A stretch of DNA of 13,248 nucleotides from Pseudomonadota bacterium (GCA_018830135.1 JAHJTB010000007.1:1-13248), one strand, 5' to 3'. Counted from the first letter of the stretch, positions 97-13,248 are shown. The notes: generated from the sequence alone by a model not told the origin. Program-made: numbers and translations.

Positions 97-2931
<2,835 letters not shown>

Positions 2932-2935
<4 letters not shown>

Positions 2936-3531
2936 TTTCGGTACCTCACGACGATACAGGAGGCGTCATCGTCGCCCTTGCTCAATTGATCCATGATTTT
3001 CGCGGCGATCTGACGGGCTGAGCCTTTCAGGAGGTCTGGGAAAAAGTTCATGTCAAAATGTTCCCTTATGCCGTCGGAAGTGGCGACCAGAATGTCCCCG
3101 GAATTCAGTTCAACCTCATGTTCCACCGGGTTTGGGATGACATATCCGATAATGCCGTCCCGGGAAAGGAACTGGTGAGGTTTGGCGCCGTACAGGCGGG
3201 TCATGATATTCCCTATGCCTGAAAAAAGCATTTTTCCAGTCTCTTTATGCAAACAACCCAGCGCGGCCACGGCGCCCCGGGTGCCGCGCAGATGCTCATG
3301 CAGGCCTTTCATGACCTCGGCCAGACTCTGCCGATAATTTTCAACCAGGTATCCCTCCGCCCGGACGGCCACGGCATGAGCATCCCGTCCGTGCCCGAGC
3401 ACGTCGATCAGGGCCCAAAACAGTTCGTCTGAGGATTCCAGGATCAGGCCCGCGTCGCCGCAGGCGTCCGGCGAGCCTTCCAGGGCCCTTTTAATAAAAT
3501 GGCAGTCCAGGCCGGGCATCATGCTCTCCAC
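2932..3531 (-). CDS. rsbX: RsbX-like PP2C/SpoIIE-family serine phosphatase (stressosome feedback phosphatase homologue)
   Basis: ORF of up to 199 aa. Metal-binding and PP2C-like motifs fall in the same order as in B. subtilis RsbX: CGDAG, DVLGHG, RGAVAA, GIGNI, TSDGI, DDDAS. The start is ambiguous: GTG 3531, or ATG 3522 (forming ATGA with the rsbT-like stop at 3519-3521), or ATG 3519. GGAGAG lies just upstream of the ATGs. Confidence 0.85.
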
Positions 3532-3935
3532 TTGCGGCCGACAATCAGGGTCCCCCGCCCCGGCTCGGATTGAATCTCAAACTCGTCCATGATTCGTTTG
3601 ACACTCGGAAGTCCCAGCCCCAGGCTGTCCCCGCTGCTGAAATGGTCCGTCATGGCCGCTTCGACGTTCTCGATGCCCGGCCCCGAGTCCTGGGCCGCGA
3701 CTTCCAGCCCCACATTCTCGAGGTTGTGTAAAATCCTGAGCGTGACCCGCCCCCCCCGGCCGGCATACCGAACGATATTGGTGGCCAACTCGGATACGGC
3801 CGTGGCAAAAAAGACCTGATCGGCCGTATTGAATCCGGCCTGACCGGCCATACTCCGGGCGGCGCTGACCGCCAGGGCGCAGTCCGATGGTTCTTCCAAA
3901 TCGATGCAGGTCTCATCGACCACACGTGTTGTCAC
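3519..3935 (-). CDS. rsbT: RsbT-like anti-sigma-type serine protein kinase (GHKL ATPase fold)
   Basis: 138-aa ORF with GTG start at 3935 and GGAG 8 nt upstream. It is collinear with B. subtilis RsbT. The N-box SELATNIVRYAG, G1 AQDSGPGI and G2 SLGLGLPSVKRIMDEF are all intact. The size and its position after two STAS genes are canonical. Confidence 0.9.
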   Translation of the reverse strand: MTTRVVDETCIDLEEPSDCALAVSAARSMAGQAGFNTADQVFFATAVSELATNIVRYAGRGGRVTLRILHNLENVGLEVAAQDSGPGIENVEAAMTDHFSSGDSLGLGLPSVKRIMDEFEIQSEPGRGTLIVGRKWRA

Positions 3936-3959
3936 CCGTTTAGCTCCAATTCAATTCCG

Positions 3960-4376
3960 TTACTCCGAATCCGACTCTTCAATATCTTGCTCAAGGTCTT
4001 CCTCGAACCGGACGGGGTTGATTAATTCCATCGCATCATTCAAGGTCACGGCCGTGTCGATGCTATCAAGATCGACATCCAGGTCCACCAGGGCGGAGGC
4101 CAAACCTGCCCCAAAACCGGTGAATATGACCTTGGGCCCTAACAGCCTTACCATTTTCGAGATGCCGGCCAAAAGGCCGAAAAGAGCCGCATCGATGATT
4201 TTTACGCTGGAAACATCGATCAGCACACCCTTGACCGGAGCGGTCTCAATTTTCTCCAGCATTTCTTTTTGCAGCAGCCGCAAGGAAGCTTCATCCGGCT
4301 CTGCGTTGAGCGTGACAACGAGGTTCCGATGAACCACGTTCATCCCGGCCCCGGAATTGGAGTAATCTTCAGACAT
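3960..4376 (-). CDS. rsbS: RsbS-like single-domain STAS protein (stressosome scaffold/antagonist), with an acidic C-terminal tail
   Basis: The STAS core NLVVTLNAEPDEASLRLLQKEMLEKIETAPVKGVLIDVSSVKIIDAALFGLLAGISKMVRLLGPKVIFTGFGAGLASALVDLD aligns without gaps to B. subtilis RsbS (...[51 protein letters not shown]). The start is uncertain. ATG 4376 (GGAAGG 11 nt upstream) is chosen here. The ORF is open up to GTG 4436 (no SD), and ATG 4343 would give a 127-aa product closest to RsbS in length. Confidence 0.85.
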   Translation of the reverse strand: MSEDYSNSGAGMNVVHRNLVVTLNAEPDEASLRLLQKEMLEKIETAPVKGVLIDVSSVKIIDAALFGLLAGISKMVRLLGPKVIFTGFGAGLASALVDLDVDLDSIDTAVTLNDAMELINPVRFEEDLEQDIEESDSE

Positions 4377-4443
4377 TATCGAAGGGACCTTCCAGGATAT
4401 GGAACCAACATTTACCTTTATCCTTTCATGGACCACCGGGTCG

Positions 4444-5253
4444 CTATTTTTTCTGCTTCACTTCATAGTTCAGCAAAGCGAACGCGTCGATCAGGGCGTC
4501 TTCAAGGGTGGAATTTGTGGTCACGGTCCCCAGATCGATACCCAGTTGGACCAGGGTCTGGGCCACGGCGGACGAGATGCCGGAAATGATGCAGCGGCAG
4601 CCCATCAGTTTGGTCGCTTTGGTGATCTTTATCAGATGATTGGCCACGGCCGTATCCACGGCCGCGACGCCCTGGATATCCATGATGATGACCTTGGAGG
4701 ACGTTTCCGTTATCTTTTCCAGCATGGCGTTCATCATTTGTTGGGCGCGCAGGGAATCGACAACGCCGACGACCGGGAGCACGATGATCCTGTCCCAAAG
4801 CTTGATGGCCGGTGTGGATATCTCCATAATGGTCCGACTCTGATCCCTCAGCTTCTGCTCGTAGCGAACCCGTTCCGAAATATCGATGACGTACTCCAGC
4901 CCGCCGATAATCTCCCCCGTTTTGCCCATCAGCGGGGCCGCCGTATATTCAATGGGAATTGTTCTGCCGTCAATGTTCAATTCATTACGCCCGGTGTACC
5001 CCTGACCGGTGTCCATGGCCTGCACCATCAAGCATTCCGGTGTCTGACAATGTGCTGAATTCAGAAGCGAGTGACAGGTCCGGCCTTCAATTTTATCCCA
5101 CGTTTTCCCCAGGACTTCACGACCCGCGGCGTTCATGAAAATGATTTCGAAATCGCGGTTCACAGCCATGACCGGTGTTGGAATCTGCTCGAGAACAGAC
5201 AGCGCGATCTCATGGTCAACATGGAACATGTTTTTGCCTTCTTGATCAATCAC
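4444..5253 (-). CDS. rsbR: RsbR-like stressosome sensor: N-terminal PAS domain (Cys/His-rich) plus C-terminal STAS domain
   Basis: 269-aa ORF with GTG start at 5253, preceded by a strong SD AAGGGGGA 6 nt upstream. The C-terminal half (ISTPAIKLWDRIIVLPVVGVVDSLRAQQ...IQGVAAVDTAVANHLIK...CIISGISSAVAQTLVQLGIDL) is collinear with the B. subtilis RsbRA STAS domain. It includes the two phospho-acceptor positions (Ser167 corresponding to T171, Thr201 corresponding to T205). The N-terminal ~125 aa read as a PAS fold (IPTPVMAVNRDFEIIFMNAAGREVLG...IPIEYTAAPL...GEIIGGLEYVIDISER), not the globin-like domain of RsbRA. Confidence 0.9.
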   Translation of the reverse strand: MIDQEGKNMFHVDHEIALSVLEQIPTPVMAVNRDFEIIFMNAAGREVLGKTWDKIEGRTCHSLLNSAHCQTPECLMVQAMDTGQGYTGRNELNIDGRTIPIEYTAAPLMGKTGEIIGGLEYVIDISERVRYEQKLRDQSRTIMEISTPAIKLWDRIIVLPVVGVVDSLRAQQMMNAMLEKITETSSKVIIMDIQGVAAVDTAVANHLIKITKATKLMGCRCIISGISSAVAQTLVQLGIDLGTVTTNSTLEDALIDAFALLNYEVKQKK

Positions 5254-5290
5254 TTTATTCCCCCTTGTTCGATAATGTATCTCAAAGTCG

Positions 5291-5323
5291 ACTATATGAA
5301 GTCTGCCGGCAAATCAATTTCCA
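5291..5323 (-). promoter_or_regulatory. Candidate promoter for the rsbR-like operon (sigma-54 -24/-12-like element, overlapping a weak sigma-70-like -35/-10)
   Basis: The minus strand reads TGGAAATTGATTTGC (5323->5309). GG and GC have exactly the spacing of the TGGCAC-N5-TTGC consensus, and the TTGC is intact, but the CAC of the -24 box is AAA. It sits about 56 nt upstream of the GTG at 5253. Overlapping it is TTGATT-N15-TATAGT (5317->5291), whose spacer is short for sigma-70. Neither is strong and no enhancer-binding protein gene is in the window. Confidence 0.3.
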
Positions 5324-5443
5324 AGAGCAAAATTTCCAGCGCGCCTTCCAGAAAAGGTAACATAACCAAATCCATGCCCTATCACCCGATGATCCGATAC
5401 CCTATTCTTATGCCCCGAACACGCCGGCTTGTCTCTGACTTCC

Positions 5444-5465
5444 TTTTTCAGATCATTCTGAAAAA
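5444..5465. promoter_or_regulatory. Perfect 9-bp inverted repeat TTTTTCAGA-tcat-TCTGAAAAA in the intergenic region (possible operator/UAS)
   Basis: Read directly: 5444-5452 is the reverse complement of 5457-5465, with a 4-nt spacer. It lies about 135 bp upstream (in transcription sense) of the sigma-54-like element, and is immediately followed by a tandem AGTATA-AGTATA (5466-5477). The function is unproven. Confidence 0.3.
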
Positions 5466-5665
5466 AGTATAAGTATAGAAAACGAATTTTATATATGGCA
5501 GCACATTGTTTCCGGAAATAGGTCATATTCTGTCACATACCGCCAGATGGCTTGATCCATCCTTGGTTTCGCTCATCCCGGCCGGTTGAGCGTTCAAGCA
5601 CGGCGCTGGTTTCGACCGCCGCCCCAGCGATCGAAAAAGCCATCCGATATGATCAATATAACACA

Positions 5666-7960
5666 TTAATTGCCGCTTTTCAGTTTCTCTTTCAAGGTCT
5701 CCAGGACGGCCTGGGCCTCCTTGAACTTGTACTTGCCGATGAATTTATTCAAATCGCCCGCCTCGTCCCGCAGGCCCTCCGGCCAGCCCGAAGCAGCGAT
5801 CCGGTCCATGACCGGCTGGCACAACTTGGGCTTGCGCTTCAGAATATGGGGTTCCAACTCGTCGAGCAGGGCCAGCAGGGCTTCCGGGTCCGCCGGCCCG
5901 GCGGCCGGCGCTACCTCGGCCGCGGGACCGCCGGCCGGCTCCAGGGCGGCCAATGAGGCCATGACCCGGCCCAGGGCCTCGGTTAGGGAAGGCAAGGCGG
6001 CCCGGGCTCCGGCCTCGTCGCCATGCTTGACGGCCGTTTCCACCTCCGCCGCCGACGCCTGAACCTCCAGGGCGCCGATGTTTCCGGCCACGCCCTTGAC
6101 CGTGTGGGCCAGACGCTGGGCCAGCTCCCGGTCGCCCGCATCCAGGGCCTCGCTAATTTTCACGGTCGACTCCGGGTAGTCCGTGTAAAACTTGAGCAGC
6201 AGTTTGCGGAACAGCGTCCTGTTCCCACCCACCCGCTTCAGGCCGTCCGCGGCATCGATGCCGGGCAGGTCCGGAATATCGGCCTCATCCGCCTTCTCTT
6301 CAACCAGCGCCGGCGGAGTCCTGTCTTCCGGCATCTCCCGTTCGCCGGGCTCGATCCACTTGAGCAACGACTGAAAGAGCTCAGCCATGTCGATAGGCTT
6401 GCTGACGTGGTCGTTCATCCCCGCCTCGATCGCCTCTTCCTTGTCCCGGGTCATGGCGCTGGCGGTCATGGCGATGATCGGCAGGCCGGCGAACCTCGGG
6501 TCTTTCCGGATTTCCTTCGTGGCCTGGTACCCGTCCATGACCGGCATCTGCACGTCCATGAGCACGGCATCGAATTTCCGGCGGTTGACCGCCTCCACCC
6601 CTTCGAGGCCATTGTTGGCGATAGTCACCAGCAGCCCGGCCCCTTCCAGAATCTCCCGGGCCACCTGCTGGTTGATCTCGTTGTCCTCGACCAGCAGGAT
6701 TTGGGCGCCCCGGATCGGACGGGCCATGTCCGCTTCCCGGTCCTTCTTCGGCCTGACCAGCTTTTCGGCATCAACCTTCCCGAAAGCCCGCATGACCGCG
6801 TCCAGCAGGCTGGAGCGGGAAGCCGGCTTGACGAGCACTCCGTCCAGTTCGGTTCCTTGCGCCGCATCCAAGGCCTCGTCCTGAGCGTACGCGGTGACCA
6901 GAATGATTTTGGGTTGTTTCGGCAGACCCGCCAGGCCCCGGATTCGGCGGCTTGTTTCGATGCCGTCCAGTTCCGGCATCTGCCAGTCCGTCAGAACCAG
7001 GTCATAGGAACGATCCGGCGGCGCGTTTTCAAGCAGGGCCAGCCCGTCCGTTCCGGACGGGGCCTGATCCACCTCGAACGAAAAGGACTCGAGCATCTCC
7101 TGCAATATCTCCCGGGCCGTCCGGCTGTCGTCTATCACCAGCACCCGCAGCCGGAGCAGGTCTTCGGACAACGTCGGCTTTTCCATCTCCCGGCCCTCGG
7201 CCACACCCAGCCTGGCCGTAAAGATGAACTCGCTGCCCACGCCGGGCTCGCTTTCCACCCATATTTCCCCGCCCATCATTTCCACCAGGCGCTTGCTGAT
7301 GGTCAGCCCGAGTCCGGTCCCGCCGTACTTGCGGGTCGTCGAGGTATCGGCCTGTGAAAAGGCCTGAAACAGCTTGCCCCGCTGCTCCTCGGTCATGCCG
7401 ATCCCGGAGTCCCGGACGGAAAACCGGATCGAGACATCATCAGCGGACCGTTCCATCATTCTGGCCGTGACCACGATCTCGCCCCGGGCCGTGAATTTGA
7501 CCGCGTTATTGCCCAGGTTGACCAGGACCTGGCTCAGGCGCAACGGATCGCCCACCAGAAAGCGCGGAACCCGGGGGTCGATATGGAACAGCACTTCCAG
7601 GTTCTCTTTTTCCTGGGCCTTGACCGTGATCATGTTGGCCACGTTGTCCAGGGTTTCCGCCAGATCGAAGTCCACCTTTTCCATATCCAGCTTGCCGGCC
7701 TCGATCTTGGAAAAGTCCAGAATGTCGTTGATGATGCCCAGCAGGGACTTGGCGGATACGTCGATCTTTCTCAGATAGTCGTGCTGCTTGGGATCGAGGT
7801 CGGTCTTGAGGGCCAGGTGGGACATGCCGATGATGGCGTTCATGGGCGTCCGGATCTCGTGGCTCATGTTGGCCAGGAACTCGCTCTTGGCCCGGGTGGC
7901 GGATTCCGCCTCCTTCCTGGCCACCTCGAGGTCTTCCATGATGTTGAGCATGGCCCGGCG
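5666..7960. repeat. Copy 2 of the ~2.3-kb diverged direct duplication (transmitter module of HK2)
   Basis: See copy 1. A hand count over HK1 aa 183-439 against HK2 aa 151-407 gives 28 differences in 257 residues (about 89% identity). The last 57 residues of that stretch are identical. Confidence 0.9.
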
Positions 7961-8410
7961 CGCCTGGGCCAGGTCGGCCACCCGGGCTTCCATGGCCTTG
8001 GCGGCCTCCGCCCGCTCGTTGAAGCTTTTCTCCAATTGTTGGGTCATGCTGTTGAAGGCCTCGGAGAACTCCCCCATGAAGTCCACCTGGTGGCTGAAAT
8101 CGCCCTGGGCGATCTGTTGGGTGGTCCAGGTAAGATGTCGCAGACTGCTTTGCAGGTTCTTCATCGAGGCCAGCAGCACGCTGTTCCCCCGGGGCGCCTG
8201 AAAGTCGATGTCGCCCCTGGACAGCGCCTGGAGCAGATCGGCGGTGGCATGGTATTCACCGAGGAACTTGTTGATGTACCCCACCGCCTGCCGTATCTCG
8301 TTGTCGGGAAAATCAGAGGGCAGAACGATGGCCTCCGGCTTTTTACCCTTGACGAGCAGATAAAAAACCTCGCTGATTTTGTCTATGATCTCTTCCTGGA
8401 CCTCGATCAT
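5666..8410 (-). CDS. Hybrid sensor histidine kinase HK2: soluble HAMP-like array, coiled coil, HisKA, HATPase_c, REC, REC, HPt, C-terminal tail (paralogue of HK1)
   Basis: 914-aa ORF with ATG at 8410, 5 nt after the V4R gene stop. The N-terminal 130 aa have no TM segment and contain HAMP-like units ([23 protein letters not shown]; [11 protein letters not shown]...[15 protein letters not shown]; [30 protein letters not shown]). H-box His184 (nt 7859-7861), REC1 Asp475 (6986-6988), REC2 Asp619 (6554-6556), HPt His769 (6104-6106). From aa 151 onward it is collinear with HK1 aa 183-948. Confidence 0.95.
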
Positions 8411-8415
8411 TTGTC

Positions 8416-8943
8416 TTACGCCTTTGGTTTGACTTCAAACCGGCAGATCCGGTCGCCGGTGCACCAGCAGTCAATCTCCTTGACGTCGAATTCCTGGCCG
8501 GTGAATTCCAGGAACAGGCCGTTGATGAATCCCTCGTCATAGGTGCAGATGCTCTCGTCGCTCATAGGCAGGCCCGAGCAGTCCAGGTCCTCGGCCACCG
8601 TCAGGATGAAGTTCATGTTCTGCATGTCGGCCTTTTCCACGCGCAGAATGCCGATGCTCAAGTCGCTGAGAAGCTGCTGAACCTCGACCACGAAATCATT
8701 GAAATCGGTCTTTTTCGTGACCAGGTTCTTGAAGAACTGGCGGCCGGCCGACCGGCCGGCATCGTAATAGACCCGGTCGGCCACCTCCGGGCCGAACTCC
8801 CTGATCAGCACGTCGCGCAGGGTAAACTGCATCAGCCGGTATACTGCTACATTCATGACGCTGCCCAGATTGGGTCTGCCCGCGGCGATGTCGCCCAGCA
8901 TGCTCCACTCGAACTGCAACTCGTCTCTCTCTTCTTTGAACAT
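8416..8943 (-). CDS. Stand-alone V4R-domain protein (4-vinyl reductase / hydrocarbon-binding family, COG1719-like)
   Basis: 175-aa ORF with ATG 8943 and SD GGGGGGA 7 nt upstream, 15 nt after the giant-sensor stop. The C-terminal half, [55 protein letters not shown], matches the V4R pattern as I remember it: C...C.[FY].G...G.....G......E..C...GD..C.F. The call is from recalled family features, not a search. Confidence 0.75.
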
Positions 8944-8958
8944 AACGATTCCCCCCTT

Positions 8959-11900
8959 TTATTGTTCCACGATTTTGTACTTTTGGCCCCGGCCCAGCTC
9001 CACCATGAGGCCGTTTATTTCTACCTTGAGCTGGATCATCTTCTCCTCGCGGCCCAGAGTCAAGCGGTTGAACCGCTCGAGGTCATCCATGTACTGCCTC
9101 ATTTCCTCCTCCACCCGCTTGCGTTCGCTGACATCCCGGAAGCTGACGACCGCACCGACCACGCGCCCGTCCTTGCGTATGGCCGTGCTGGTATACTCCA
9201 CGGGGAAGCATTGCCCGTCTTTGCGCCAGAGGACCTCGTCGTCCACGTGGTGCGTGGCGCCATCGGTGAAGGAAGCGTGCATGGGGCATTGTTCCAGCGG
9301 ATATTCGCTGCCGTCGGCCCGCGAATGGTGGAAGAGGGCATGCACCGCCTGGCCTACGACCTCGCCCTCGGGAAATCCCAGCATCTTCAAGGCGGCGGGG
9401 TTGATGAAGGTCAGGGCGCCCCGGTCGTCCACACCGAATATGCCTTCCCCGGCGGATTCCAGCAGCAGCCGGCTGCGTTCCTCGCTGCTCTTGAGTTCCT
9501 CGGTCCGCTCTTCGACCAACAGTTCCAGGCGTCCCTTGTAACGCTCGATTTCGGCCCGGGCCTGCTCGGCGTCCTCGGCCAGGCTCAATGCGGCTGCACG
9601 CTCGCGCAGGGACTCCTCGGCCCGCCTGGCCATGGCGGCTTCGGCCCGTTGGGCCCGGAGGCGTTCCACGGTGTTGGAGACCACCGTCTGGGCCAGGCTC
9701 AGCAGAAAGCTCAGGATGGCGGGCAGCCGTTCCTCGGAGACGATGGGGGCCTCGGTGACGGCCTCCAGATAGGGCCCGACTTCGAGCCCGACCTCCCTGG
9801 CCTGGCGCCTGAAAAACTCCAGATCGGGCGGCTCGGTGAAAAACTGGCCCACGAAAGCATTGGCCACGTGTTTGCCGCCGATGATGACCGGGGAGGCGCA
9901 GTCGGTCAGCCCGTTCTTGCAACGGTACATGGAAAACGGCTGGCCCTCGTTGAGCTTGAGAGCCAGAACGGTGTCGCTTTCGATGCACCGCTCGCAAGTC
10001 ATGTCATTGGCCCGGTGGAAATCGGTGCAGGCCCGCTGCCAGGGAGACGCGGCCAGCACCTCGCCTTCCATGTCTATGATGGCGGCGGAGATGCCCACCG
10101 TCTGCCAGAAGGCGCTCATCAGGTCGGCGAACTGGGACCCGGTCAGTATCTCGCCCAGTTGGGCGGAATCGATCGCGACGAGTCCTCCGTCCCGCGCCTC
10201 ATCATCCCCGGCATCCGGCTCCGGATCGCCGGCAGGTTCCTCCGTGCGGCCTTTAAAGGGCGGTTCCATGCCGGCCTGGACAGCCAGGGCGTTGATTCGG
10301 CTCTTCAGTTCGATGACGCGCTGTTCGCGTCCCATGGCCAGTCGGTTGAAGCGCTCGATCTCCTCGAGTTTGGCCTGGAGTTCCGTCCGGGCCGCCTCCA
10401 CATCCTGTCTGGCCCGCTCGGCCCGGGCCGCCGCCTCCTCGGCCACCTCCTTCTCCACCATCAGGGCCTCGGCCTGTTTGCGCTGGCTGATGTCGCGGAC
10501 CGTGCCCACCGCAAACCACTCATCGTCCACCTGGAAGGAGGACAGCGTCACCTCTACGGGAAAAATCCTCCCCTGCCGGTCCTGGGCCTCGATCTCGGTG
10601 GTCTTGCCCAAAACCGGACCCTGACCGGTCCGGGCGAATGTCTCCAGCCCCTGGCGCACCTTGTCCCGATAGGGTTCCGGCGCGGCCATGGCGTGGAAGT
10701 CCATGGCCATGGCCTCATCGGCCGTGTACCCGAAAAGGCGCTCGGCTGCCGGGTTGAAGAACATCACCGCACCCCGGCTGTCCAGCATGACCAGGGCGTC
10801 GTCCACCGCCTGGCTCATGGCTCGCGTTTTCTTTTCCGATTCCAGAAGTTGTCCTTCAGCCCGCTTGCGTTCGGCGACCTCCCGGCCGAGCCTCCGGTTC
10901 CACAGGACGATGACGAGCAGAATCAGCACAAAGGCGCCGGCGATGGGGATGGCCCATTTGAGCAAGGTCCGCAGTTCCAGGCCCTGGACGTACTGGACGG
11001 ACACCCAGCGGTTTTTGATCCCGGCCTTTTCGCTCTCGGTCATCGAAGCTAGGCCCTTGTCAAGGATCAAGACCAGTTCCGGCCAGTCTTTGCGGACGCC
11101 CATGCAGAGGTCGTATTTGAATGGGGTGGGCGCGGCGATCTTGAGGTTGGCCAGCCCGTCGGCGTCTATCCCGTAGGTCACCGCCGCGAGATTTCCTATG
11201 ATGGCGTCCAATTCGCCCTCGGAAACGGACCGAAGGAGTTCGGTCATGTCCCGCCGCGGGTCCAACCGGATATCCGGGAAAGAACGCTTGAGGTATTCCT
11301 GGACCGCATATCCTTCTATCACTCCGACTTTTTTCCCCGTCAAATCACCCACCCCGCCGATAAACGGGGCGTCCTTGCGAGTGACGATCACCGCCGGAAA
11401 AGAGGCATATGGCTTGGTGAAAAGGAGATACGCCTCGCGATCCGGAGTGGGGGCCACCGCGGCCAACATGTCCAAATTCTTGTCCTTAAGACCTTGTACG
11501 ACCTGCAGCCAGGCGAGCCCCTCAGCCGAAGCGAGGGTCAGCCCCAAGCGCTTTTCCAGGGCTCTTACAAAGCCCGCGGATATCCCGCTGTATTCTTTTT
11601 TCTTGTTCAAAAACTCAATCGGCGGCCAGTTCGGGTCGATGCCGAGACGGATTTTGGGATGGTCTTTCAGCCAACGGCGCTCTTCCGCGGCCAACACCAA
11701 TTTCTGCGATTCCTTTTCTGGTCCCATCACGGAAGGCAACCATCGGCGGCGAAGCTCCCGCAACTCGTCTTTGGTGATGGCATCCAGTCCTTTTTGAAGG
11801 ATGTCTCGCAGGATGATGTTGTCCTTCAGCACCCCCATGTGGAGTTCGGTCTCCTGCTGCGTCTTGAGCCAGACCTCGCCGGAAATTTTAATATCCGGAA

Positions 11901-13248
11901 TGACGGCTGTGTCTAAAATATGCGAGATTACCCCCAAACTACCGATGAAGGCATCGACGCGCCCGAGCGAGACCGCCTTTAATCCTGCCAGGACGTTTTC
12001 CACCGGTACCTGCTTGATTTTAGGATACCGATCACGCATGACATCGGCAGTAGCAAACCCGGACACAATGGCAACCTTCATGCCCTCCAGGTCCGCCGCT
12101 TTTTCGATATTGCCGCGTTCCTTGCCTACCACAACAACGGAAGGGTTGGCGGCGTAAACCGTCGTAAACGCCATGAACTCCTGGCGCTCCGGGGTCAGGT
12201 AAACCGCCGGTAACACGTCTATTTCGCCAGCCTTGAACTTGGCGGCCAACTCGGCCCAGGCGTAACCGTTGACAAACCGCAGGCTTATCCCGATTTTTTC
12301 AGCCGCTGCGCGGATCAGGTCGATGGTCAGACCTCTGGGTTCGCCGTTTACAACAAAATCGAACGGAGGCCAATCCATTTCATTGGCCACTGTTACCTCC
12401 GGATGGGCGTGAAGCCAGACCTTTTCCTCAGGCTTCAGCTTCAGACCAAACCCGGGTCGTTCCTTCAATTCGTATATTTCCTTGGCCACCTGGGCCAGGT
12501 CCAGGGTGTATTCCGTACGCGTGGGGTTGCATTTTTTGGAATAGTGCCGGAAGTCCACCTCGTTCGGGTCCAGGGCCAGAAAATACGTGAACGTTGATAG
12601 GTTATCCTTGATGATGGCCGGCATCCTGGTGGTGAAGCTGAGGCCTTCCGAAGCGAAATCAACGCCCTTCAAGTAGTCGTACAACATCAGCACGGCCCAG
12701 GCCCCTTCGATGAAATGGCCTCCCACGCTCGCCTGAAGACGGCCCTCGCCGATGGCCTCGAGTGCTCGCGGGTCCCAGTCGACTCCGCCAATAAACATCG
12801 GATGGTCGATGCCCATTGCATTCACGGCGTCGGCAACGGCCAGGGCCATGTTGTCATTCGCGCACCAGACCACGTTGATGGCAGGATTCTTGGCATAGTA
12901 TTGCTTGAACACGCTAACGGCCGCAGCCGGGTCCCAGTTGCCCGGGGCCTCGCTGAAAGATTCGACCCGAAGAGCGTACTTCAAATAATCTTCCAACCCC
13001 CTGCGCCGCTGGATGGAAGCCTCCTGGTCGGGCTGTCCCTCGATACCCAGAACGTGGCACCCAGGCGCCCCGGCCTTCTCGGCCAGGCTCAGGAGCTGCT
13101 GTATGAGCGTGGTTCCGGCCGCACGGTCGTCGGGCGTCATCTTGCCCACCCAATAACGGTACTTGGTCCGAGGCAGGAAATCAGCGCCCTCGATCTCGGT
13201 GTTGATCATGAAAGCAGGGGTGTGGTACTTTTCCGCGATCTGCAGGAC
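8959..13248 (-). CDS. Giant multi-domain membrane sensor with no recognisable output domain (5' end outside the window)
   Basis: The 1,416-aa ORF in the track starts at ATG 13209, but the frame stays open to 13248 (VLQIAEKYHTPAF upstream of that Met). The first domain is also incomplete, so the true start lies beyond the window. Numbering from Met at 13209: aa 1-225 is a type-I periplasmic-binding (sugar-SBP-like) domain (VVWCANDNMALAVADAVNAMG...GGVDWDP). aa ~263-490 and ~508-738 are two type-II SBP_bac_3-like domains (EMDWPPFDF..., IDPNWPPIEF...). The TM helix is aa 749-770 (nt 10900-10965). PAS is ~790-908, followed by a coiled coil and an acidic linker at 985-1008. The PocR-like domain is ~1015-1175 (ACTDFHRANDMTCERCIESD...YRCKNGLTDCASPV). 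A coiled coil with an ERT-type signalling helix follows, then PAS ~1245-1362 and a terminal helix to stop TAA 8959-8961. No HisKA, GGDEF, EAL, HD, MCP or DNA-binding motif was seen. Confidence 0.9.
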   Translation of the reverse strand, partial: VLQIAEKYHTPAFMINTEIEGADFLPRTKYRYWVGKMTPDDRAAGTTLIQQLLSLAEKAGAPGCHVLGIEGQPDQEASIQRRRGLEDYLKYALRVESFSEAPGNWDPAAAVSVFKQYYAKNPAINVVWCANDNMALAVADAVNAMGIDHPMFIGGVDWDPRALEAIGEGRLQASVGGHFIEGAWAVLMLYDYLKGVDFASEGLSFTTRMPAIIKDNLSTFTYFLALDPNEVDFRHYSKKCNPTRTEYTLDLAQVAKEIYELKERPGFGLKLKPEEKVWLHAHPEVTVANEMDWPPFDFVVNGEPRGLTIDLIRAAAEKIGISLRFVNGYAWAELAAKFKAGEIDVLPAVYLTPERQEFMAFTTVYAANPSVVVVGKERGNIEKAADLEGMKVAIVSGFATADVMRDRYPKIKQVPVENVLAGLKAVSLGRVDAFIGSLGVISHILDTAVIPDIKISGEVWLKTQQETELHMGVLKDNIILRDILQKGLDAITKDELRELRRRWLPSVMGPEKESQKLVLAAEERRWLKDHPKIRLGIDPNWPPIEFLNKKKEYSGISAGFVRALEKRLGLTLASAEGLAWLQVVQGLKDKNLDMLAAVAPTPDREAYLLFTKPYASFPAVIVTRKDAPFIGGVGDLTGKKVGVIEGYAVQEYLKRSFPDIRLDPRRDMTELLRSVSEGELDAIIGNLAAVTYGIDADGLANLKIAAPTPFKYDLCMGVRKDWPELVLILDKGLASMTESEKAGIKNRWVSVQYVQGLELRTLLKWAIPIAGAFVLILLVIVLWNRRLGREVAERKRAEGQLLESEKKTRAMSQAVDDALVMLDSRGAVMFFNPAAERLFGYTADEAMAMDFHAMAAPEPYRDKVRQGLETFARTGQGPVLGKTTEIEAQDRQGRIFPVEVTLSSFQVDDEWFAVGTVRDISQRKQAEALMVEKEVAEEAAARAERARQDVEAARTELQAKLEEIERFNRLAMGREQRVIELKSRINALAVQAGMEPPFKGRTEEPAGDPEPDAGDDEARDGGLVAIDSAQLGEILTGSQFADLMSAFWQTVGISAAIIDMEGEVLAASPWQRACTDFHRANDMTCERCIESDTVLALKLNEGQPFSMYRCKNGLTDCASPVIIGGKHVANAFVGQFFTEPPDLEFFRRQAREVGLEVGPYLEAVTEAPIVSEERLPAILSFLLSLAQTVVSNTVERLRAQRAEAAMARRAEESLRERAAALSLAEDAEQARAEIERYKGRLELLVEERTEELKSSEERSRLLLESAGEGIFGVDDRGALTFINPAALKMLGFPEGEVVGQAVHALFHHSRADGSEYPLEQCPMHASFTDGATHHVDDEVLWRKDGQCFPVEYTSTAIRKDGRVVGAVVSFRDVSERKRVEEEMRQYMDDLERFNRLTLGREEKMIQLKVEINGLMVELGRGQKYKIVEQ

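Follow-up and report, generated by a model that had tools for sequence, protein, structure and literature searches.

Sensor kinases are normally read as single chains, and output-less sensor proteins, such as short LOV or PYP-V4R proteins, are routinely left unexplained. In BvgS and EvgS, periplasmic SBP_bac_3 domains, a transmembrane (TM) helix and a PAS domain are followed in one polypeptide by a HisKA-HATPase-REC-Hpt transmitter. The same module order is found in the stretch of DNA studied here (hereafter the window), 13,248 bp that make up the entire contig C373 of a fragmented assembly (G000; 6.8 Mb, 562 contigs, 62% G+C) from a Pseudomonadota bacterium. Here, however, the chain is split after the PAS into a giant sensor and a soluble hybrid kinase, HK2, so that the single polypeptide typical of these kinases is absent, and a tail at the end of the sensor, a probable di-HAMP head at the start of HK2 and a small V4R protein are added. 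The sensor aligns to residues 173-748 of EvgS and HK2 to residues 693-1060, and their scores with the EvgS family model are 128 and 220 bits, respectively, against a cut-off of 1995. As far as can be judged from sequence, this trio points to an undescribed wiring of sensors to enzymes via separate docking proteins. No description of a sensor/V4R/di-HAMP-output unit was found in the open-access literature searched, and the V4R pairs known from bilin gene clusters occur in a different context (PMC10151467).

Three tandem genes encode an output-less sensor, a V4R protein and a soluble hybrid kinase

The original prediction, made from this stretch of DNA alone, proposed that the membrane receptor and the transmitter are separate proteins of one unit, a proposal that is supported by the synteny, the conserved tail and the natural fusion described below. 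The core features of the unit, all three genes of which lie on the minus strand, are the following:

8959-13248, minus strand: giant sensor, an open reading frame (ORF) that is open at the window end; 1429 amino acids (aa) visible, stop TAA at 8959-8961
8965-9132, minus strand: C-terminal tail of the sensor (aa 1373-1428), SERKRVEEEMRQYMDDLERFNRLTLGREEKMIQLKVEINGLMVELGRGQKYKIVE, then Q and the stop; independent E-value (i-E) of 1.1e-25 with the tail profile hidden Markov model (HMM)
8416-8943, minus strand: V4R gene, 175 aa, start ATG, stop TAA
5666-8410, minus strand: HK2, 914 aa, start ATG
8171-8410, minus strand: part 1 of the HK2 head (aa 1-80), a conserved helix-loop-helix with helices at 6-20 and 38-64
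8021-8161, minus strand: part 2 of the HK2 head (aa 84-130), a probable HAMP domain (weak Pfam HAMP match at aa 84-127)
5666-8020, minus strand: HK2 transmitter, consisting of a signalling helix, HisKA (aa 174-239), HATPase_c (aa 287-401), two REC domains (the second at aa 571-681) and Hpt (aa 737-816)

The tight spacing that had been noted is exact: 15 nucleotides (nt) separate the sensor stop from the V4R ATG (this spacer, AAGGGGGGAATCGTT, contains a ribosome-binding site) and 5 nt separate the V4R stop from the HK2 ATG. Ribosome-binding sites are located within or just ahead of both spacers, and no terminator-like site was detected on the minus strand between the three genes. The three binding domains, TM helix, PAS, PocR and PAS that had been read in the sensor are recovered by Pfam, NCBIfam and hydropathy, and neither domain collection reveals a cryptic output: no kinase, cyclase, phosphodiesterase or DNA-binding domain was found in the giant sensor at E<=0.01. 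The original prediction also described HK2 as carrying HAMP-like modules but no TM segment, which agrees with a weak HAMP match (see below) and with the lack of any hydrophobic segment in HK2 (maximal Kyte-Doolittle mean over 19 aa of 1.15).

A conserved C-terminal tail on sensors devoid of output domain

The last ~56 aa of the giant sensor belong to a conserved tail whose consensus is ITERKxxEEELxQxVEELERFxRLTxGREEKMIQLKEEINxLLEQxGxxxKYKIV. Domains were sought in 41 sensors ending in this tail (the giant sensor and 40 relatives, 417-1649 aa). Ten tail residues (E, F, R, E, M, L, K, E, N and Y) are invariant across the 41 and all ten are present in the giant sensor, which has the motif E-x-F-x7-RE-x2-M-x2-LK-xE-x-N followed by a Y at most ~10 aa from the stop and no output domain. 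The input domains are diverse: besides PAS, they include SBP_bac_3 (15 sensors), dCache (12), Phosphonate-bd (11), NMT1 (8), GAF (6) and PocR (5). No output domain is present among the 25 families listed of the 29 matched, and none was found in 15 further tail proteins scanned, which are all PAS, GAF or PocR proteins.

The tail family includes at least 14,745 cluster representatives (E<=1e-3) and exceeds the V4R family, for which 7,882 homologues were retrieved from a word-indexed collection. The tail is located at most 10 aa from the C-terminus in 139 of the best 150 tail proteins, and in 37 of 46 loci 37-38 aa separate the start of its motif from the C-terminus. No tail fused to a kinase was found, either in the 10 matches of a word-indexed search or among the exceptions in the 150 best tail proteins; internal tails lead into PocR or PAS domains, not into outputs. 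A Pfam search of the tail and of aa 1-77 of the head at E<=10 identified no family, the only matches being insignificant ones to coiled coils and His_kinase (PF06580).

Genomes carry 1-4 strong tails, mostly in the V4R locus; in V4R-bearing genomes, most or all strong tails fall in this locus. These low numbers rule out a genome-scale organization in which many sensors would converge on one kinase as methyl-accepting chemotaxis proteins (MCPs) do. Loci with several tails are common (13 of 80). Assembly G000 itself harbors a third tail-ending sensor (C547:1191-2882) made of SBP_bac_3, TM and PAS domains, one of which resembles the second PAS of the giant sensor; its tail ends in …KYKIH and it is followed by a gene encoding a membrane protein, not V4R. 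Weaker tail-like C-termini were observed on two PAS proteins, one encoded ahead of a gene for a KaiC-like ATPase (L093, G023:C58) and the other ahead of genes for a CheR-like methyltransferase and a membrane kinase (L085, G268:C126).

Conservation of the trio across genomes

Profile HMMs of the tail, V4R and head were mapped on 80 genome loci and 80 metagenome loci, and the counts below are over assessable loci. The head directly follows V4R in 73/79 genome loci and 60/64 metagenome loci (133/143 together), and the tail directly precedes V4R in 49/78 and 35/77, respectively (84/155 together). The three-gene synteny that the original prediction called for is found in many phyla, tail sensor, V4R and headed output being present in this order in 45 of 77 genome loci and 29 of 61 metagenome loci. 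All features of the 80 genome loci are on the strand of V4R and in the same order, with a median spacing of ~23 nt before V4R and 17 nt after it (profile-to-profile distances).

What the downstream proteins have in common is their first ~130 aa, i.e., the head. Behind it, the outputs are exchanged, as are the input domains ahead of the tail: among 54 headed proteins, 40 carry HisKA, seven SpoIIE/PP2C, three Guanylate_cyc (class III cyclase) and two GGDEF, and a few carry nothing more. In 301 genomes of the phylum, V4R was detected in 24 and the head in 22; the head is present in 20 of the 24 V4R genomes versus two of the 277 genomes without V4R, and the two genes adjoin. As the sampled genomes are related, these counts are descriptive and do not amount to a statistical test. 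The adjacency of V4R and head extends to a second, more divergent V4R subfamily.

Fused forms exist as well. In one lineage, sensor, tail and V4R are encoded by a single ORF, with a 12-aa linker from KY(K)IV to the start of V4R (L039, L057, G008, G050, G087 and G121), and, as regards domain order, the EvgS/BvgS-type kinases carry both halves in one chain. No V4R-HAMP fusion was found. A survey published in 2025 lists 20 fusions of PYP(PAS) to V4R that "lack an apparent signal relay domain" (PMC12826048).

Some loci depart from the usual layout. In L010 (7512-11036), from the cultured strain Holophaga foetida DSM 6591, which carries the unit, the tail is encoded by a separate open frame of 108 aa whose reading frame differs from that of the 715-aa PAS sensor upstream; this is due either to a frameshift or to a sequencing error. 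The head-bearing protein of this locus is only 182 aa long and lacks any output domain; similar short forms are found in L052, L062 and L080. Victivallis vadensis has the pair of V4R and head. L021 (1580-2668) has two V4R genes in tandem between the genes of the tail sensor and of the head-bearing protein, a hint at a dimeric or heterodimeric V4R.

The V4R protein

The V4R protein matches Pfam PF02830 at aa 114-173 (57.9 bits, cut-off 31) and the family profile HMM of the 175-aa type at 328 bits. It is 64-85% identical to its relatives from Desulfobacterota, Nitrospirota, Acidobacteriota, Planctomycetota, Lentisphaerota, Chloroflexota, KSB1 and other phyla, and 59 of the 175 alignment columns are invariant across phyla (alignment A6), including five cysteines (C122, C133, C159, C161 and C167). 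A structure model of a relative (L004, 82% identical) matches 5kbe, 7vqf, 5fru, 5frz and 6iy8 in Foldseek with a probability of 1.00 and target-normalised TM-scores of ~0.56-0.62; these are phenol-binding sensor domains of MopR/PoxR/DmpR. A sequence-only search of the PDB returned only marginal matches, to MopR and MJ1460. The best NCBIfam match is MsvR (NF053755; 63 bits versus a cut-off of 220), but it covers MsvR positions 106-236 only: the helix-turn-helix (HTH) of MsvR is absent and the protein is not a full-length MsvR. In MsvR, conserved V4R cysteines modulate redox-dependent DNA binding (PMC3729527). Given the conserved cysteine cluster and the predicted MopR-like pocket fold, it is plausible that V4R itself receives an input, be it redox, a metal or a small ligand.

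The same assembly contains an orphan, divergent V4R paralogue (C495:1759-2286; 237 bits) in which CWAS replaces CWCS. It is followed by a gene encoding a 433-aa protein of unknown family, not a HAMP-headed protein.

The probable di-HAMP head and the transmitter of HK2

The HK2 head scores 223 bits with the head HMM. Its second part matches HAMP (PF00672) with 20.3 bits, under the 25-bit cut-off; 24 of 54 homologues match this family at E<=1e-3 (best 3.4e-9) and the alignment with the HAMP of BarA begins at aa 82 of HK2. The first part is probably a divergent HAMP, as judged from its modelled structure. AlphaFold2 (AF2) predicts four helices in the head (pLDDT ~90) at aa 6-20, 38-64, 78-101 and from 114 on; the connector that joins the last two contains two invariant glycines, G103 and G113. 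Among PDB structures, the fold of the whole head comes closest to the poly-HAMP of Aer2, with a weak match (E 0.02, TM-score ~0.3), and a sequence-only PDB search with the head retrieved designed coiled coils only.

The HisKA, HATPase_c, REC and Hpt domains of HK2 all score above the Pfam cut-offs and carry their phospho-acceptor motifs (H-box SHEIRTP, receiver aspartates in LTDWQMP and LMDVQMP, and HTVKG in Hpt). According to NCBIfam, HK2 is of the BarA/TorS/ArcB type; as each score is under its equivalog cut-off, HK2 is not BarA or TorS itself. The junction between head and transmitter is identical in relatives from other genomes.

Domains of the giant sensor and neighbouring genes

The remaining features of the giant sensor, and of the sensor gene that precedes it, are as follows:

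12664-13137, minus strand: Peripla_BP_4, a type-I periplasmic binding domain (aa 38-195; Pfam E 2.7e-23, profile positions 100-256 of 258)
11002-12399, minus strand: two SBP_bac_3 (Venus-flytrap) domains (about aa 284-505 and 533-749; Pfam E 1.6e-51 in two stretches, the best at 533-749)
10885-10974, minus strand: single TM helix (aa 759-788; Kyte-Doolittle mean over 19 aa of 2.64)
10489-10827, minus strand: PAS domain 1 (aa 808-920; Pfam)
10261-10395, minus strand: internal degenerate copy of the tail (aa 952-996; tail HMM i-E 2.1e-12, 56.8 bits)
10150-10260, minus strand: acidic low-complexity linker (aa 997-1033)
9673-10149, minus strand: PocR sensory domain (aa 1034-1192; Pfam E 2.1e-42)
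9124-9447, minus strand: PAS domain 2 (aa 1268-1375; Pfam PAS_9)
contig C295, within 2681-6113, upstream of the giant sensor: sensor A (921 aa), with an NMT1-like domain, a TM helix, four PAS domains and the same tail at its end

In NCBIfam, the two Venus-flytrap domains match the ArtJ/ArtI type (aa 286-505 and 532-700). The internal tail copy lacks the KYKIV end and is followed by the acidic linker, which separates a "binding domains-TM-PAS-tail" half from a "PocR-PAS-tail" half. The tail-PocR-PAS-tail arrangement is also found in L008, L031, L032, L041, L050 and L051, and tails with ~423-435 aa beyond them occur at no fewer than six other loci. Considering this linker and the recurrence of the same tail spacing elsewhere, the giant sensor looks like a fusion of two formerly separate tail sensors.

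The original prediction saw the sensor only as far as the window reaches; that it is open at the window end stands, and its extent can now be completed. Its 5' end is on contig C295 of the same assembly; the last 5 nt of this contig, at its 3' end, coincide in frame with the end of the window. The terminal ORF of C295 encodes a signal-peptide-like start and the first part of the type-I periplasmic binding domain, including the first ~100 positions of the Peripla_BP_4 profile. An independent record (P0244, 1495 aa) contains the joined C295/window sequence, and the complete giant sensor is ~1535 aa long.

One PAS of sensor A and PAS domain 1 of the giant sensor are 80% identical, a similarity suggestive of gene conversion or of domain shuffling. 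This locus thereby comprises two tandem sensors, with three tail copies in all, ahead of one V4R and one HK2. Further upstream on C295, the hybrid kinase has a third paralogue, which shares 59% identity with HK2. On the other side, a 412-nt gap 3' of HK2 precedes rsbR-S-T-X-like genes and HK1, a second hybrid kinase (89-2935 in the window). The HK1 transmitter (101-2389) shares 84.7% aa identity with that of HK2, and 86.9% DNA identity over 2,291 nt, but their heads are unrelated (pseudo-RsbT versus di-HAMP). Both kinases probably feed a common downstream relay. The gene order is identical on an independent 31-kb ENA contig, which extends further and where a REC-HD-GYP gene directly follows HK1 (L081, 13153-14274).

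A model for the unit and the alternatives to it

The most likely mechanism, to which a probability of about 60% can be given, is that the hybrid kinase is gated by a V4R/di-HAMP pair, to which one or more tail sensors are coupled non-covalently. The anatomy, conservation, synteny and co-occurrence described above, the one natural fusion of tail and V4R and the exchange of sensor and output modules are observed; what we infer in the following is all physical contacts, the direction in which regulation runs and any V4R ligand. The three genes would encode one signalling unit made of separate polypeptides. The sensor would perceive periplasmic ligands through its three binding domains and cytoplasmic cues through PAS, PocR and PAS, without any enzymatic output of its own. 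It ends with the tail, predicted to form a long helix, a glycine turn and the KYKIV C-terminus. V4R would pair with the di-HAMP head of the soluble HK2 and thereby control in trans a HAMP-gated kinase. In the tail-bearing subfamily, the tail would dock on the V4R/di-HAMP pair, most probably on V4R, so that the state of the sensor would reach HK2 non-covalently. HK2 would then autophosphorylate and the phosphate would pass via REC and Hpt to downstream regulators. As two tandem sensors and three tails stand ahead of one V4R and one kinase at this locus, several inputs probably converge here.

Several observations weigh against this mechanism. Two complete genomes without V4R, G116 and G296, have full-strength tail sensors beside stressosome operons: in L082 (G116:C31) and L083 (G296:C41), both V4R and head are absent and the gene of the tail sensor (…KYKIVE-stop) is 30-37 nt upstream of a PAS-STAS rsbR, followed by rsbS, rsbT, rsbX and a hybrid kinase, i.e., the same operon as the one 3' of HK2 in the window. 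Weaker tail-like ends (…RExRMxELKxEVNxL…PPRY) precede other kinases and a CheR-like or KaiC-like gene. The tail may thus have another or more general partner than V4R, the adjoining stressosome being a candidate. Conversely, V4R and head pairs are present in Chloroflexota and Planctomycetota genomes devoid of tails (G301-G303), and no V4R or head residue distinguishes tail-linked from tail-less loci. From these distributions, V4R and the HAMP-headed output read as the core pair, to which tail sensors are an add-on, and tail binding does not account for how strongly V4R is conserved; this conservation must stem either from the partnership with the HAMP-headed output or from a cofactor. The natural fusion of tail and V4R is confined to one lineage. 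Lastly, the three genes of L004, which are in one frame, were modelled with AF2 as a pseudo-fusion (stops replaced by Gly; a single chain running from PAS-tail through V4R and head to the signalling helix; staggered alignment of 122 rows from the loci of this analysis). The domains folded (mean pLDDT 80.9), but no confident inter-domain packing was obtained (pTM 0.41), and the confidence was low at the KYRIV end and, to a lesser degree, at the conserved N-terminus of V4R. It may be speculated that these conserved segments become ordered only when a partner binds.

In the main rival explanation, V4R itself would sense a redox signal, a metal or a small ligand and regulate the di-HAMP kinase in trans, in the manner of H-NOX or NosP proteins and their neighbouring kinases. 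The tail sensors would not signal via V4R, and their tails would serve the stressosome or other kinases, or would merely dimerise the sensor. It would account for the V4R and head pairs of tail-less genomes, for the absence of tail-specific residues in V4R and head, and for the tails found directly upstream of rsbR-S-T-X-kinase operons in genomes without V4R (the unit of the window is itself just upstream of such an operon). The resemblance of V4R to the redox-sensitive MsvR, in which V4R cysteines modulate activity (PMC3729527), and to the ligand-binding fold of MopR/PoxR also fits. Nevertheless, this explanation seems rather unlikely as a whole, since it leaves aside that the tail sensor, where present, is directly upstream of V4R (84/155) at a median of ~23 nt on the same strand and in the same order, that one lineage joins tail and V4R by a 12-aa linker, and that most or all strong tails of V4R genomes lie in the V4R locus. 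That the three genes would be mere neighbours, the sensor acting on its own, for binding or as a scaffold, and V4R being an unrelated binder of small molecules, is improbable. The evidence for coupling is genomic and the pseudo-fusion showed no confident packing, but order and spacing are kept over many phyla in two independent collections, V4R and head co-occur (20/24 versus 2/277), and three short elements are conserved amid varying surroundings. The chance that the locus is a once-fused BvgS/EvgS-type kinase broken by a nonsense mutation or a frameshift, or an assembly artefact due to the HK1/HK2 repeat, is practically negligible. Sensor and HK2 together do resemble a fused EvgS, and the assembly, with its 562 contigs, places on one contig two transmitters that share 86.9% of their DNA sequence. 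However, the distance from the tail motif to the stop is fixed in 46 independent loci, which excludes a frameshift origin; the intact V4R gene, on which the original prediction had already based its argument against a simple frameshift, is very highly conserved; the head-to-transmitter junction is the same in relatives from other genomes; and the independent 31-kb ENA contig has the same order.

If non-covalent coupling through V4R and the di-HAMP head is correct, a soluble protein could take the place of a membrane helix in driving HAMP domains. V4R, which in these genomes ranks among the most conserved small proteins without a known function, would gain a signalling role, and thousands of "orphan" PAS sensors of anaerobes in many phyla would be given a testable partner and route. 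A broader and more tentative proposal is a plug-and-socket architecture, in which a universal tail would plug into a near-invariant V4R coupler sitting on the di-HAMP head of interchangeable kinase, PP2C and adenylate or diguanylate cyclase outputs; V4R would be redox- or ligand-gated and the output would be active only when sensor and V4R agree. Such an architecture would correspond to the receptor-CheW-CheA principle in a soluble, modular form assembled from unrelated parts, with two new domains (tail and head) and a new role for V4R. The free exchange of sensors and outputs around three short elements might also provide natural connectors for synthetic signalling pathways.

Comparison with known systems

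The unit is reminiscent of the chemoreceptor-CheW-CheA system, as both combine an output-less TM sensor with a conserved cytoplasmic end, a small adaptor and a soluble kinase, and as several receptors per kinase are possible. However, the MCP signal domain, CheW and CheA (P1-P5) are not matched in the three proteins by Pfam or NCBIfam. Moreover, tail sensors number 1-4 per genome and belong to the same operon, whereas chemoreceptors number dozens; the outputs include PP2C and cyclases, and arrays are not implied. In the H-NOX/HnoK and NosP/NahK pairs, as here, a small stand-alone protein with a sensor fold is translationally coupled to a hybrid kinase devoid of TM segment. The match of HK2 to the NahK/ErcS family model is sub-threshold (180 bits versus a cut-off of 400), and the present unit differs by its V4R fold, by the dedicated di-HAMP head on the kinase and, usually, by a third, membrane partner that carries the tail.

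The V4R fold, with a cysteine-containing C-terminal V4R motif, is shared with XylR/DmpR/MopR/PoxR and with archaeal MsvR. These are one-component regulators, in which V4R is fused to AAA+ or HTH outputs and controls them, whereas the V4R described here is stand-alone, far more conserved and paired with a HAMP-headed enzyme. The head can be compared with the soluble poly-HAMP of Aer2, which has, as is probable for HK2, a HAMP at the very N-terminus of a soluble signalling protein and a second one next to it, but the first unit of the HK2 head has a longer loop, its own conserved signature and no Pfam family. Finally, the RsbR-RsbS-RsbT stressosome relies on STAS and RsbT-type kinase proteins, whereas the V4R unit has no STAS domain; like this unit, it is a multi-protein sensory module, and in the same gene string it feeds HK1, a hybrid kinase nearly identical to HK2.

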